Origin: a virus
Lineage: Duplodnaviria; Heunggongvirae; Uroviricota; Caudoviricetes
Reading direction: 5' to 3' (one strand)
DNA length: 15,164 nucleotides
Virus record (IMG/VR): IMGVR_UViG_2703718819_000014
Coordinates: 1-15,164 of that record
In this document: positions 1 through 15,164 of the stretch, piece by piece
Layout of the letters: every line of letters starts with the position of its first letter
Numbering within the stretch: position 1 is the stretch's first letter
Made by a program: the position numbers and the translations under genes
The notes under the pieces: generated by a model
What the model was told of the DNA's origin: nothing
The model's input: the letters and a program-made list of their open reading frames with translations, nothing else
Database searches by the model: none

Positions 1-1287
1 TCAGCGTCTTGCTCTGTGGGGCATGTATGGGACACTTTCAGCTAACTCCTTATTGAGCAGTTCTATCTGCCCGATATTGTTATCTTTCATCCATGCTCCG
101 TAAACATTGAATACCATCTGAGCGTTTGCGTGCCCCATCTGGTTTGCGATAAAGCTTGGATTCGCTCCTGCGGCCAGTGCCCAGCAGGCATAAGTATGCC
201 TTGACTGATAGGCTTTCCTGTGCCGTAGTCCGGCCCGTCTCAGGGCTGATGCCCATGAATCCCTGATGGAGTCCGCTTTGTAGTGGTAACCGGCTTGCTG
301 GCACTTTTTCACCAGTTGCGGATTAAAGACAAACGTGCATTCATGGCTTACGGTGCGTCCGAACTCCCGCAGTTTGACGTCAATCTGGTATTGAGTGCCA
401 AATCTTGTCATTTCAGCCTGACTTTTCAGGGTTTCAATGGCTGGTTGAACAAGATGAATAACACGATCTGTTCCCGCTTCGGTTTTTGGTAGAGTAAACT
501 CCCCGAGTTTTGTATAATTACGACGGATAGTCATTGTTTTAGCTTTTAAATCAATATCCTCCCAGGCGAGAGATATTAGCTCACCGTGACGGATGCCTGT
601 GTATACTGCTAAAGACCACAGGTTTTTCGTTTGTTGATGGTGGCAAGCATCAATAAAACGAATGAATTCGTCATGCGTGAGCGGATCTGGCTCGGTTCTG
701 GACCTTTTTAATGGTGTCAGGCCGTTAAACGGGTTTGATTCCGTGTAGCCGTTGTCAGCTGCAAATTGAAACATACCTGCAATTGTCGTCATGTAGTAAT
801 TAACTGTAACTACAGATCTCCCCTTAACAGGTGTTGTTTTGCCGTTTGAGAGATTGTGATACCCGGTCAATAAATCTTTCCTGATGAAGAGTAAATCTTC
901 TTTTGTTACAGATGAAGCCAGTCGGCTTTCCCCTATACGAGGCAACATGTTTCTCACCACAGATTGATACCGATTGAATGCGTTACCTCCTATTTCGATT
1001 TTTTTCAGATCCAGCCATTTTTCTGAAAGCGCCTTAATGGTTATCTCCTTTTTTCCCAGACCAAAGTGTTTCAGATTTGGGGACTCAGGAAACTGCGCAG
1101 CGTAGTCGAAATTCCCCATTCTGATTGCAAAACAAACTGAAGTCCTGAGTTCGCCTGCAATCTTCCGGTTTTTGGCTGTGTCAGGAACACCGAGGTTTTC
1201 TCTGACACGTTTGCCGTTATAGTGAAACCATATGCGGAGTGATCCGCCATGGTTTTCAACGCCTGTCGGGTATGATGTGTTACTCAT
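1..1287 (-). CDS. int: Tyrosine-type site-specific recombinase (phage integrase)
   Basis: 428-aa ORF; ATG at 1287-1285 with GGAGG 5 nt upstream; C-terminal region carries the conserved Arg/His/Tyr pattern of lambda-family integrases (RHGE, HxxR, RHTYACW); stop codon sits at the window edge, so attL is not visible. Confidence 0.9.
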   Translation of the reverse strand: MSNTSYPTGVENHGGSLRIWFHYNGKRVRENLGVPDTAKNRKIAGELRTSVCFAIRMGNFDYAAQFPESPNLKHFGLGKKEITIKALSEKWLDLKKIEIGGNAFNRYQSVVRNMLPRIGESRLASSVTKEDLLFIRKDLLTGYHNLSNGKTTPVKGRSVVTVNYYMTTIAGMFQFAADNGYTESNPFNGLTPLKRSRTEPDPLTHDEFIRFIDACHHQQTKNLWSLAVYTGIRHGELISLAWEDIDLKAKTMTIRRNYTKLGEFTLPKTEAGTDRVIHLVQPAIETLKSQAEMTRFGTQYQIDVKLREFGRTVSHECTFVFNPQLVKKCQQAGYHYKADSIRDSWASALRRAGLRHRKAYQSRHTYACWALAAGANPSFIANQMGHANAQMVFNVYGAWMKDNNIGQIELLNKELAESVPYMPHRARR

Positions 1288-1320
1288 TGAACCTCCCAGA
1301 CGTCCAGGAGCATTAACAGG

Positions 1321-1575
1321 TTAACCGGAACTTGCATTTTTGACACCTGGTTGTTTCTGGTTTTCGATCCATCGCATAATTTCTTCGATGTTGTACAGGC
1401 ATTCACTGTAATGCCCTGGATCACCTTCTACAGCGTAATGGCGGTATTCTTTTCCCTGCATCCATGACTTTCTTCTGGCCCGCTCGATGGTGCCAGGCTT
1501 TAGCCCTGTTGATGCAATGAGGACTCTCTCCGTACACCATTTGCTGGGGGTTATCTGATAGATGATTGTCTGCAT
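1321..1575 (-). CDS. xis: Excisionase-like small DNA-binding protein
   Basis: 84-aa ORF immediately upstream of and co-oriented with int (33-bp gap); GAGG RBS; basic, small, with a lambda-Xis-like KDGREY-type segment (QGKEYRHY). Assignment rests mainly on position and size. Confidence 0.6.
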   Translation of the reverse strand: MQTIIYQITPSKWCTERVLIASTGLKPGTIERARRKSWMQGKEYRHYAVEGDPGHYSECLYNIEEIMRWIENQKQPGVKNASSG

Positions 1576-7448: not shown

Positions 7449-7725
7449 TTCTGCAATTCCGGGACGTTACACTGTTCCGGCACCTTATAAAGCGGGTGCC
7501 GGGCGTGGAAACCCGAAATTCAATATAGAGCACAACCGCGCTCATGCGGTTTTTTCGTGTCATGAGCATCGTTACGCCCAAATTATGGTGGGGCGTGCAG
7601 GGCCAACTTCGGTTGGGCCGGGTTCTATGTTGACCGGTATTTCCACCCCTGTACGTCTCACCACCTATATGGTCGTGGAAAGCCTTGGTGGTGAGTTCAT
7701 TGAATTCAACATAGGGGCTGTCACC

Positions 7726-12989: not shown

Positions 12990-13006
12990 TTTTGTGGAGA
13001 AAGTTG

Positions 13007-13399
13007 ATGCGTGATATTCAGATGGTTCTCGAACGCTGGGGGGCATGGGCGGCAAGTGGTAACGCCGGGGTGGACTATTCTCCGATAGCTGCTGGATTTA
13101 AAGGCCTTTTACCATCCACCGCTAAACCTCGCCCGGCCTGCAGCGATGATGACGGCCTTATCATCGAAAACTGCCTTACGCGCCTGAAGAAGAAAAAACC
13201 GGACGAGTATTCGCTGCTGGTAGCTCATTATCTGCTGCGCATATCAAAAAGGCAGATTGCCAGAACAAGAAAGAAGAGCGAAAAGGCAATACGAATTGAG
13301 ATGCAGATTGCTGAAGGATTTATTGACGGATGTCTGTCGATGCTGGGTGTAAGGCTGGAGATGGACGACTGGCTGCCCAAAAAAGTAAAAAATGATTAG
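13007..13399 (+). CDS. Late-gene antiterminator, Q family (phage-82/P22 gp23 type)
   Basis: 130 aa; N-terminus MRDIQMVLERWGAWAA and ...AAGFKGL...C.DDD...RLKKK.PDEY.LL..YY match the Phage_antitermQ-type pattern; GGAG RBS. Coordinates taken from the ORF track. Confidence 0.75.
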   Translation: MRDIQMVLERWGAWAASGNAGVDYSPIAAGFKGLLPSTAKPRPACSDDDGLIIENCLTRLKKKKPDEYSLLVAHYLLRISKRQIARTRKKSEKAIRIEMQIAEGFIDGCLSMLGVRLEMDDWLPKKVKND

Positions 13400-13459
13400 C
13401 GCGGTCCGCAAAAAGTATGTCAGTATGTTAAGAGTGGTTACTACGCCACACAACTTAAA

Positions 13460-13481
13460 CCCGCCGCCTGGCGGGTTTTTT
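13460..13481 (+). terminator. Intrinsic terminator about 60 nt downstream of Q
   Basis: CCCGCC / GCCT / GGCGGG hairpin followed by TTTTTT; preceded by a CA-rich unstructured tract CGCCACACAACTTAAA. Confidence 0.7.
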
Positions 13482-13600
13482 ATGACTGAAATCGCATCAG
13501 TACAGTAAACGTGCTGGTGGTGAATACCTGTCTTTCAGCTTGCTGGCTTTTTAGACAAGAGTTATTGGTATGTCACGTTAACCGGAAAAGGGAAAAAGAC

Positions 13601-13798
13601 ATGCTAAAACAGCAGGATATGACAGAAACCGCCAGAGTGGTGTTTAATGAATTAAGCGTCACCTACCCGGCGACAGTCGGGGAGATTGCGCAGAATACTT
13701 ACCTTTCACGCGAACGCTGCCAGTTAATACTGACCCAGCTGGTTATGGCGGGTCTGGCAGACTATCAGTTCGGTTGTTACAGACGCCTTCCGCAGTGA
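13601..13798 (+). CDS. Small putative winged-helix DNA-binding protein (65 aa)
   Basis: Internal ATG of track ORF 13511..13798 with AGGGA upstream; size and pattern (VGEIAQNTYLSRERCQLILTQLVMAGL) resemble small PapI/FaeA-type regulators; followed directly by a terminator. Weak assignment. Confidence 0.45.
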   Translation: MLKQQDMTETARVVFNELSVTYPATVGEIAQNTYLSRERCQLILTQLVMAGLADYQFGCYRRLPQ

Positions 13799-13812
13799 AG
13801 GCTTTTTTATTT
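13785..13812 (+). terminator. Intrinsic terminator
   Basis: GCCTTC / CGCAGT / GAAGGC hairpin overlapping the stop of the small ORF, followed by TTTTTTATTT. Confidence 0.65.
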
Positions 13813-13922: not shown

Positions 13923-14152
13923 CTCACAATTCAGGCGGTTGACTGTTGTCTGGTTTGCGGGGAGTTTGTTAAAAGAAACTGGCATGGTGAATCCCCCTGT
14001 GCGGAGGGGCAATCAGCAACTGGTGTTTTGTCACCGACCCTTATCCTTTCTGTGCGGGTTCAGGTGCTGATACTGAACTCACCGGGAGGCACCCGGCACC
14101 ATGCAATGGCACATAGCGCCACTCTCCAGCCCCTCTCCGGAGGGGCTTTTCT
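13923..14152 (+). ncRNA. Candidate structured sRNA module, copy 1 (includes its terminator 14129-14152)
   Basis: Conserved blocks shared with copy 2 at identical spacing: CTCACAATTCAG, TTGACn (+16), TTTGTTAAAA (+42), GCATGGTGAATCCCCCTGnGCGGAGGGGC (+59), CTGAACTCACCGGGAGGCACCCGGCACCATG, then hairpin GCCCCTC/TCCG/GAGGGGC + TTTT. The 5' GCATGGTG can pair with 3' CACCATGC, closing a 123-nt domain. Confidence 0.4.
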
Positions 14153-14341
14153 GTGCCGGATACATCACAGTTTCTGGAACCTTGGGTACTACAGTATCAG
14201 TCAGGGTGCTATATTTTCAGATGTGATGAAAGCCTGTCAGCAGGCAGGGCGTATCGGAAATGACCCAGTAGAGAAAACGTTGACTCAGATACCGGTGCTG
14301 AGTTACCGGGAAACCGGCATCACATGACCGCTATCCTTCCA

Positions 14342-14368
14342 GGCCCATCCGCTCCGGTGGGCCTTTTT
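14342..14368 (+). terminator. Intrinsic terminator
   Basis: GGCCCA / 10-nt loop / TGGGCC hairpin followed by TTTTTA. Confidence 0.55.
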
Positions 14369-14405
14369 ACTGCAGAAAACAGGTTCCCCGTTAAATGCTA
14401 TGTTG

Positions 14406-14640
14406 CTCACAATTCAGTAAGTTGACAGTTGCCTGTCAGACTGGGCATTTGTTAAAAAAATTTCGCATGGTGAATCCCCCTGAGCGGAGGGGCGACTGGT
14501 GACGGTATAATCTCTGATTATCAAAACGAGAATGACGCGGGTTTAGTGGCACCGGGCTGAACTCACCGGGAGGCACCCGGCACCATGTGCATGATGATAC
14601 AGATACACGGCTTTAGCCCCTCTCCGGAGGGGCTTTCTTG
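14406..14640 (+). ncRNA. Candidate structured sRNA module, copy 2 (includes its terminator 14616-14640)
   Basis: Same block order and spacing as copy 1 (blocks at +16, +42, +59); closing helix GCATGGTG ... CACCATGT spans 124 nt (the one change gives a G-U pair); intervening sequence differs from copy 1; terminator hairpin GCCCCTC/TCCG/GAGGGGC followed by a weak U-tract (TTTCTT). Confidence 0.4.
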
Positions 14641-14645
14641 TGGGC

Positions 14646-14672
14646 AAAAAAAAAGCCCGAGTGGGTTCGGGC
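14646..14672 (-). terminator. Intrinsic terminator on the minus strand, back-to-back with the copy-2 terminator
   Basis: On the minus strand: GCCCGA / ACCCAC / TCGGGC hairpin followed by nine T (plus-strand A9 at 14646-14654). Confidence 0.6.
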
Positions 14673-14694
14673 AACAGCATGAGATATACATTTT

Positions 14695-14700
14695 TATAAT
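14695..14700 (+). promoter_or_regulatory. Candidate -10 element (TATAAT) of a late (PR'-like) promoter
   Basis: Perfect TATAAT with AT-rich upstream sequence and no clear -35; about 30 nt upstream of a strong terminator and 155 nt upstream of the esterase start. Confidence 0.35.
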
Positions 14701-14727
14701 CGAATGGATTTTAACCAGAATTCATAA

Positions 14728-14752
14728 GGCTGCGCAACTGCGCGGCCTTTTT
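14728..14752 (+). terminator. Intrinsic terminator (tR'-like)
   Basis: GGCTGCGC / AACT / GCGCGGCC (8 bp with one G-U pair) followed by TTTTT; about 100 nt upstream of the esterase start codon. Confidence 0.65.
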
Positions 14753-14855: not shown

Positions 14856-15164
14856 ATGACATTTAAACACTACGATGTGGTCAGGGCGGCGTCGCCGTCA
14901 GACCTTGCGGAGCGACTGACTCAAAAACTGAAGGAGGGGTGGCAGCCATTTGGCAGTCCGGTGGCCATCACGCCCTATACCCTGATGCAGGCCATTGCGG
15001 CGGAAGGTGATGTCACCACACCTGTGGTGGTGAAGCCGTCGGATGGAGAAGGCACAGTTATCAGCACCACCAGCGAACCGGAGTATTACTTTGTTGTTGT
15101 TCTGGCGGGGCAGTCAAACTCAATGTCTTTTGGTGAAGGGCTGCCGCTGCCGGAGACATATGAC
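14856..15164 (+). CDS. NanS-p-like sialate O-acetylesterase (5' partial; gene runs off the window)
   Basis: GGGAGG 5 nt upstream of ATG 14856; open to the window end; N-terminus MTFKHYDVVRAASPSDLAERLTQKLKEGWQPFGSPVAITPYTLMQ matches, from memory, the DUF1737-type N-domain of prophage NanS-p proteins; followed by VVVLAGQSNSMSFGEG, a GQSN esterase-type motif. Not in the ORF track because no stop codon is in the window. Confidence 0.7.
   Translation, partial: MTFKHYDVVRAASPSDLAERLTQKLKEGWQPFGSPVAITPYTLMQAIAAEGDVTTPVVVKPSDGEGTVISTTSEPEYYFVVVLAGQSNSMSFGEGLPLPETYD

Follow-up and report, generated by a model that had tools for sequence, protein, structure and literature searches.

The 15,164-nt viral DNA analysed here (IMG/VR record IMGVR_UViG_2703718819_000014, Caudoviricetes; hereafter the window) harbors a tandem array of three small RNA (sRNA) genes of the STnc100 family (RF02076; EcOnc27/sRNA103; PasD-related). 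The original prediction, made from the sequence alone, had described two paralogous modules of about 230 bp (13923–14152 and 14406–14640) and proposed them as a candidate pair of structured sRNA genes. The sRNA reading is supported. The element is not new, however: both repeated modules are members of STnc100, a catalogued prophage sRNA gene family. In an Rfam scan at the gathering threshold (47 bits for RF02076), both match the model over its full length (positions 1–206 of 206), copy 1 (unit 1) at 13953–14158 with 141.4 bits (E = 8e-32) and copy 2 (unit 3) at 14436–14645 with 165.3 bits (E = 6e-38). The present analysis adds a third unit, a covarying fold that includes a pseudoknot, and the placement of the RNA start at the closing helix. 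A prophage of Escherichia coli STEC2018-607 matches the window at 100% identity.

The sequence blocks reported for the two copies are all present: CTCACAATTCAG begins at 13923 and at 14406, followed in both by TTGAC at +16, TTTGTTAAAA at +42 and GCATGGTG at +59. The 8-nt closing helix (P1) is there as well. In unit 1, GCAUGGUG (13982–13989) pairs with CACCAUGC (14097–14104) and closes a domain of 123 nt; in unit 3, 14465–14472 pairs with CACCAUGU (14581–14588) around 124 nt. Each domain contains the CCCCC/GGGG and CCGGG/CCCGG hairpins. The helices are P2 (13993–14009 in unit 1; 14476–14492 in unit 3), P4 (14056–14063/14073–14080; 14539–14547/14556–14564) and P5 (14082–14086/14092–14096; 14566–14570/14576–14580). 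A linker (14105–14127; 14589–14614) leads to the terminal GC-rich hairpin, which occupies 14128–14147 before UUUUC in unit 1 and 14615–14634 before UUUCUU in unit 3; a terminator scan found the hairpin sequence AGCCCCUCUCCGGAGGGGCU to be identical in the two. The predicted RNAs, both on the + strand, measure about 171 nt (13982–14152; from the Rfam match, single-sequence fold, covariation and terminator scan) and about 176 nt (14465–14640, EcOnc27-like; from the Rfam match, fold and covariation). Units 1 and 3 belong to different subtypes, each widespread on its own, and this argues for selection on structure and against a recent duplication, as the original prediction had held. Among relatives, core and linker subtypes occur in varied combinations.

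Relatives were collected from viral contigs by exact-pattern scanning, once with each of the two conserved blocks (3′ and 5′). The scans yielded 162 distinct cores at 190 loci. The 5′ block (AAUCCCCCU-nn-GCGG-n-GGGGC) and the 3′ block (UCACCGGGAGGCACCCGG, followed by CACC) are almost invariant even in the cores retrieved with the other block, and the 3′ block is identical in 138 of the 162. Across very different phages about 45 positions are invariant or nearly so (AAUCCCCCU..GCGG.GGGGC, GCG and UCACCGGGAGGCACCCGGCACC). A MAFFT alignment of 84 non-redundant cores supplied the covariation analysis that had been proposed as a check, and compensatory changes were found in P1 and P4. Cells of these two helices are paired in 93–95% of cases versus 83–85% after shuffling (0 of 500 shuffles as high), the covariation score is 0.33 versus 0.135 (again 0/500), and controls with slid registers give 43–50% pairing. 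Double changes affect seven of the eight pairs of P1 and all six pairs of P4, so that the closing helix is confirmed by covariation. P2 and P5 hardly vary, and covariation is uninformative for both; the exceptions to their near invariance are two CCACC/GGAUGGG variants and the divergent unit 2 described below. A shifted P2 register (16–31, 17–30, 18–29, 20–27, 21–26) fits the two variants and leaves 99.8% of P2 cells paired, versus 89.5% in the Rfam register.

Tandem arrays of two to four units, always on one strand, make up 30 of the 190 viral loci, with a spacing of typically 250–260 or 468–490 nt. Six viral contigs carry arrays of three or four units spaced by about 250–260 nt, each unit with a AAGGCTGCC..GGCGGCCTTTTT terminator; a recognisable σ70 promoter is missing from their inner units. 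Of 5426 complete E. coli genomes, 2952 contain relatives of unit 3, up to 12 of them per genome (median 2). A scan of genome contigs with GGTGAATCCCCCNNNNNNGGGGG returned chance matches only, in unrelated bacteria. Hammerhead-like CUGAUGA...GAA strings in the variable loop of some relatives were considered as a ribozyme candidate and rejected, being neither conserved nor matched by an Rfam ribozyme model at E ≤ 10.

The fold also contains a pseudoknot. In nearly every member, a segment 1–3 nt 3′ of P2 is complementary to the loop of P4: AUCAGCA (14012–14018) with UGCUGAU (14065–14071) in unit 1, and CUGGUG (14496–14501) with CACCGG (14550–14555) in unit 3. The paired sequences are diverse and occur in both orientations, as in CCAGUC/GACUGG and CUAGAC/GUCUAG, with further pairs such as ACUGGAUA/UAUCCAGU and AAAACCAG/CUGGUUUU among relatives. 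The pairing was assessed by permutation on a structure-blind MAFFT alignment, chosen to avoid fitting bias. Four core pairs have 72% of their cells paired versus 49% after shuffling (0/500), with a covariation score of 0.60 versus 0.24 (0/500) and lower values for slid controls. Duplex energies, computed on fixed windows with no register fitting, average -10.3 kcal/mol for cognate and -6.4 kcal/mol for non-cognate pairs (none of 10000 permutations reached so low a value). Often all or nearly all of the P4 loop is paired, as in kissing-loop helices, and P4 and the pseudoknot helix may either coexist or alternate. The consensus-structure line of RF02076 shows no such pseudoknot; a recent structure analysis of the family used RNAalifold, which predicts no pseudoknots (Zhu et al., 2026).

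The DNA between the two copies is not a plain spacer. A permissive Rfam scan revealed a third STnc100-like match at 14197–14370 (30.1 bits, E = 4e-5), so that the locus is a three-unit tandem array and not a pair. The starts of the three Rfam matches lie 244 and 239 nt apart. The score of this middle unit stays below the 47-bit threshold, and it is best described as a divergent STnc100-like RNA (14221–14369, +), a description that combines the sub-threshold match with the fold. Its architecture is that of units 1 and 3, built from different sequence: P1 pairs 14221–14228 with 14318–14325 (AUGUGAUG/CAUCACAU), P2 is CCUGUC-AGCA-GGCAGG (14233–14248), P4 joins GACUCAG (14282–14288) to CUGAGUU (14298–14304), P5 is CCGG-GAAA-CCGG (14306–14317), and a strong terminator at 14341–14364 is followed by U5. 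The pseudoknot is retained (UAUCGG, 14252–14257, with CCGGUG, 14292–14297). Single-sequence folding reproduces P1, P2, P4, P5 and the terminator (z = -2.67). The middle unit is found in 673 complete E. coli genomes as two variants, at ≥99% and about 91% identity, which differ by a C-G to U-A double change at the P2 pair 14233–14248 and by two consistent single changes. Strain ECONIH6 carries the same three-unit array behind a different antiterminator gene. An alternative description of 14159–14405 as a remnant with a 33-codon open reading frame (ORF) was rejected, since a third STnc100-like unit explains the segment better.

Each unit is preceded by promoter-like sequence. The predicted σ70 promoter of unit 1 (13946–13975, +), assigned from promoter geometry, combines a -35 element TTGTCT (13946–13951), an 18-nt spacer that includes the TG of an extended -10 (13967–13968), and the -10 hexamer TAAAAG (13970–13975). 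That of unit 3 (14429–14458, +) would consist of TTGCCT (14429–14434), TG (14450–14451) and TAAAAA (14453–14458). Upstream of unit 2 a putative extended -10, TGcTATATT (14207–14215, +), can be read at the same distance from P1 as in the other units. In 136 distinct upstream regions of relatives, the best -10 hexamer starts in most cases 18–21 nt 5′ of AAUCC, which places it 10–13 nt ahead of the start of an 8-bp P1. In many cases it is an extended -10, for example TGTTAAAAA in E. coli types, or TAAATT with a consensus TTGACA -35 in other types. Given this fixed distance, transcription most likely starts at about the first base of P1, that is at 13982, 14221 and 14465. The 5′ end of PasD2, placed at position 741157 of NC_011601 by RNA sequencing (RNA-seq) and Northern blotting, is the G of GCAUGGUG. 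The RF02076 model, in contrast to both the promoter geometry and the PasD2 end, begins 29 nt upstream of P1. With the start at P1, the first 59 nt of each module, containing blocks 1–3, would be promoter and upstream DNA, so that the originally proposed structured module of about 230 bp holds for its RNA domain and not for this leading part.

The upstream block itself was assigned from sequence and alignment, on the + strand, as CTCACAATTCAG in unit 1 (13923–13934) and unit 3 (14406–14417) and as CATCACAGTTTC in unit 2 (14163–14174), and it is also conserved in E. coli-type relatives. A (C/A)TCACA(A/G)TT block thus recurs in all three units, 58–59 nt 5′ of P1 and the predicted start. In unit 3 and in phage 933W a perfect inverted repeat, TGACAG-N4-CTGTCA, comes next and overlaps a consensus TTGACA; that TTGACA sits too far from the -10 to act as a -35 element. 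The block or the inverted repeat may be the site of a regulator.

The array would comprise three independently transcribed genes, with a convergent AsxR gene after them, in the 'moron' zone downstream of the Q-dependent late promoter. Each unit would consist of a σ70 promoter with extended -10, a structured core of 105–124 nt starting at +1, a variable single-stranded linker of 15–26 nt and an intrinsic terminator, the core being formed by the closing helix P1, hairpin P2, the pseudoknot between the post-P2 strand and the P4 loop, and P5 abutting P1. In the lysogen, each unit would give rise to a stable, Hfq-associated RNA of about 150–175 nt, which would pair in trans with host or phage mRNAs via the variable linker 5′ of the terminator, and possibly via the variable internal loop, and the invariant pseudoknotted core would provide a scaffold that stabilises the RNA or binds a partner. 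In the lytic cycle, RNA polymerase modified by Q would pass through every terminator. For this model, family membership, fold and position, together with the lack of a conserved ORF or a tRNA, come from the present analysis, and expression and Hfq binding from the literature on homologues; for the transcription start, the location of the seed and the role of the core, the model goes by inference. The PasD seed (UGUGAG) sits in the linker by the terminator, and the listed PasD1 chimeras from RIL-seq (in which interacting RNAs are ligated and sequenced) map to the 3′ part of the RNA, which points to the variable linker as the carrier of specificity. Linker, internal loop and pseudoknot sequence are not the same in the three units, which would therefore have different targets. 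Overall, a trans-acting sRNA mechanism is judged probable, with confidence that is reasonable and well short of complete.

Several observations weigh against it. Support for expression and Hfq binding comes from homologues, and the three units of the window are known from their sequence. The U-tracts after terminators 1 and 3 are short and weak for a canonical Hfq-binding 3′ end, and a simple base-pairing sRNA would not usually have a pseudoknotted core with about 45 invariant nucleotides. In published Δhfq RNA-seq data, PasD1 and PasD2 are not reduced (log2 fold changes of -0.18 and +0.55), although PasA, PasB, PasC and MgrR drop 4- to 100-fold. The reported phenotypes of sRNA103 are limited to raised fimZ and espA, with direct pairing unproven, and in some arrays of other phages the second and third units show no recognisable promoter.

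In another explanation, the conserved pseudoknotted core itself carries the function, through binding of a specific protein or small molecule or through catalysis; the RNA would be a decoy, a sponge or aptamer-like, and Hfq-dependent pairing would be secondary or incidental. The 45 or so invariant or near-invariant positions persist while the surrounding helices covary freely, the GGGAGGC motif is retained in PasD despite deletion of the 3′ strand of P5, and both the weak U-tails and the Hfq-independent abundance of PasD agree with such a role. However, no protein gene is conserved beside the units, the types of Q and holin vary, no Rfam riboswitch or ribozyme model matches even at E ≤ 10, and Hfq crosslinking and RIL-seq partners have been published for homologues. 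The explanation is unlikely, if worth keeping in mind, and the same low probability is given to the corollary that STnc100/PasD is not an ordinary base-pairing sRNA. Variation in the family is confined to the pseudoknot 'address', an internal loop and the 3′ linker, and phages keep up to four tandem paralogues at the entrance of the late operon. If the corollary were true, the fold would imply a dedicated, undescribed partner (a protein, a ligand, RNA polymerase or the ribosome) or catalysis. Less probable still is a role in cis, within the late transcript, as processing or stability elements or as a stack of terminators that insulates the lysis genes and marks the borders of moron cassettes, the short RNAs being by-products. 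In its favour, every unit shares the orientation of Q and the late genes and is located between Q and holin, six intrinsic-terminator-like hairpins occur on the + strand from Q to the esterase gene, a methylase-tRNA-stx2 cassette replaces units 1–2 in Stx2 phages with the same Q, and linker and core subtypes are variously combined. Such a role is at odds with the promoter-like element of each unit at a fixed distance from P1, with a covarying RNA fold that neither a terminator nor a DNA recombination site needs, and with the accumulation of homologues in uninduced lysogens (PMC5331693, PMC8550237).

The remaining alternatives concern the nature of the blocks. The original prediction had itself allowed that they could be protein-binding DNA sites such as Q-utilisation (qut) elements; the blocks would then be late promoter or qut sites and the RNA a PR′-tR′ leader like lambda 6S or StxS. 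The position downstream of Q and the StxS precedent (PMC7547250) invite this reading, but a 933W-like PR′/qut/first-terminator-like segment (~13400–13482, +; assigned by alignment with the annotated 933W region) lies at least 440 nt upstream of block 1. As this segment adjoins Q, the blocks are not Q-utilisation sites. The units themselves start at 13982, 14221 and 14465; moreover, the blocks occur downstream of unrelated Q families (PF06530, PF03589, DUF1133-type and unclassified), and the unit of 933W follows stx2B, 2 kb from PR′. This leaves the leader reading very improbable. An equally remote chance is given to the modules encoding a small peptide, from the AUG inside GCAUGGUG, or tRNA-like genes. 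An ATG or GTG stands at the same place in 148 of 162 cores and ribosome footprints were reported on some EDL933 STnc100 copies (PMC5331693), yet the ORF opened by that codon varies in length between 0 and >37 codons, and the block spacings are spread evenly over the three frames (43/59/60), in keeping with the earlier statement that no reading frame is conserved. The junction of P5 with the 3′ strand of P1 recalls that of a T-arm with an acceptor stem, but the P5 loop has 5 nt and no T-loop sequence, and ARAGORN found no tRNA or tmRNA gene in the window, as the first description had also concluded for the modules.

The placement 'between Q and the late genes' holds broadly and can be refined: the array lies downstream of the late promoter and terminator that abut Q, and upstream of the nanS-p-like esterase and the lysis genes. 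In the lambdoid prophage of STEC2018-607 the order is DUF968 protein, Q, a 65-codon ORF, the array, a SASA/nanS-p-type esterase, holin, lysozyme, Rz and terminase; in the window, Q (PF06530) occupies 13004–13399 and the esterase gene begins at 14856. Alignment with 933W right after Q shows a conserved initial transcribed sequence (AAGAGUGGUUAC) and a CCCGCC...GGCGGG-U6 hairpin, and 13400–13482 is, judging by this likeness, probably the real late promoter and tR′ of the prophage. The segment also shares a conserved AAGAGTGGTTAC with 933W. The 65-codon ORF (13601–13798, +), with its own terminator at 13785–13802, lies between tR′ and the array. It has no Pfam match and is 'hypothetical' in RefSeq; it is 93% conserved, at the same place, in Stx2a phages. 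Among relatives, the STnc100 blocks also lie upstream of unrelated holin families.

Ten nucleotides beyond unit 3, an AsxR-type anti-sRNA gene is encoded convergently (14650–14702, -; RF02703, 63.0 bits, equal to the gathering score of 63), so that unit 3 is a sense sRNA facing an AsxR/AgvB-type gene. The same stretch gives a sub-threshold AgvB match of 43 bits. Further on, a + strand terminator (AAGGCTGCGCAACTGCGCGGCCTT then T5, 14726–14749) precedes the esterase gene; elsewhere, many phages have a terminator of this type directly 3′ of STnc100 cores. In Stx2 phages with the same Q, a methylase-tRNA-stx2 cassette takes the place of units 1–2, which suggests, from gene order, cassette exchange at the array site. 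Stx2a phage Stx2_EH2201 (4108–9441), for instance, shares Q and the 65-codon ORF with the window and has a DNA methylase, three tRNAs, stx2AB and iraM where the window has units 1–2. Elsewhere in the window, the early region (7480–7668, +) pairs isrK (61.6 bits) with a C4 antisense RNA (82.4 bits), an arrangement resembling a P1/P7 immI-type or Gifsy-1 IsrK-type antisense control module.

STnc100 occurs in the majority of complete E. coli genomes and, in Shiga-toxin phages, borders stx2; the family thus adjoins major virulence genes. The practical value of the present assignment lies in annotation, as RefSeq leaves these loci blank or calls spurious pseudogenes. The loci of unit-3 relatives in E. 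coli genomes carry no annotation. In three genomes, RefSeq/PGAP places opposite-strand 'hypothetical protein' pseudogenes (with internal stops, partial) across STnc100/PasD DNA, at 13972–14112 (-) in the window and at 1098–1339 (-) and 1150–1275 (-) in the other two, with the sRNAs unannotated; these calls are probably annotation artefacts. The residual interest is modest and resides in the unannotated pseudoknot, the third unit and the invariant core. The pseudoknot, the RNA start at P1 and the three-unit array also define constructs with which to ask whether activity resides in the core or in the linker.

Several homologues have been described. EcOnc27 (sense) and AsxR/EcOnc02 (antisense) were reported as 'convergent sRNAs' at the moron insertion site downstream of PR′ in Stx and other lambdoid prophages, and 8 or more Sakai prophages have such dyads (Tree et al., 2014, PMC4104026). 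EcOnc27, which is sRNA103, was confirmed by Northern blot and by Hfq cross-linking and analysis of cDNA (Hfq-CRAC; PMC4104026, PMC7873438), and its targets are described as unclear (PMC7873438). In EDL933, 11 STnc100 copies are annotated and one was seen by Northern blot (PMC5331693). STnc100 has further been found to overlap variants downstream of stx2 that predict hemolytic uremic syndrome (PMC12711010), was detected in outer membrane vesicles (PMC12370729), and has been linked by structural similarity to PasD1/PasD2 of enteropathogenic E. coli (EPEC; Zhu, Shabalina and Storz, 2026, preprint).

Among known systems, RF02076 itself, a Gammaproteobacterial sRNA first listed from Salmonella Hfq studies, has the closing helix, two conserved hairpins, P4 and terminator in common with units 1 and 3. 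PasD1 and PasD2 of EPEC E2348/69 (Pearl Mizrahi, 2021) share the P1 strand GCAUGGUG, a P2-like hairpin, the pseudoknot (AAUGAUC/GAUCAUU in PasD2), P4 and the position upstream of the esterase gene. In contrast to the window units, PasD2 is without the 3′ strand of P5, although GGGAGGC is retained, its P2 loop is shorter and its linker differs (PasD has the seed UGUGAG); it reaches only 41 bits on RF02076. Compared with the PasD2 copy, the window units lack the identifying features of PasD (the UGUGAG linker seed and the P5 deletion); they are relatives of PasD and not PasD alleles. StxS and lambda 6S are likewise short prophage RNAs from between Q and the lysis genes, subject to termination in the lysogen and to read-through once Q acts, but differ in promoter and sequence, the STnc100 units having promoter-like elements of their own. 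The closest counterpart is the EcOnc27/sRNA103 and AsxR dyad of 933W and Sp5, which unit 3 and its AsxR gene match in order, orientation and position: in 933W, the same unit as unit 3 lies 75 nt after stx2B and is followed by antisense AsxR and then the esterase gene. Unit 3 and AsxR are the published convergent sRNA dyad. In contrast to 933W and Sp5, the prophage in the window has no stx there and carries two extra sense units upstream instead, and the 5′ part of its AsxR differs from the 933W copy.

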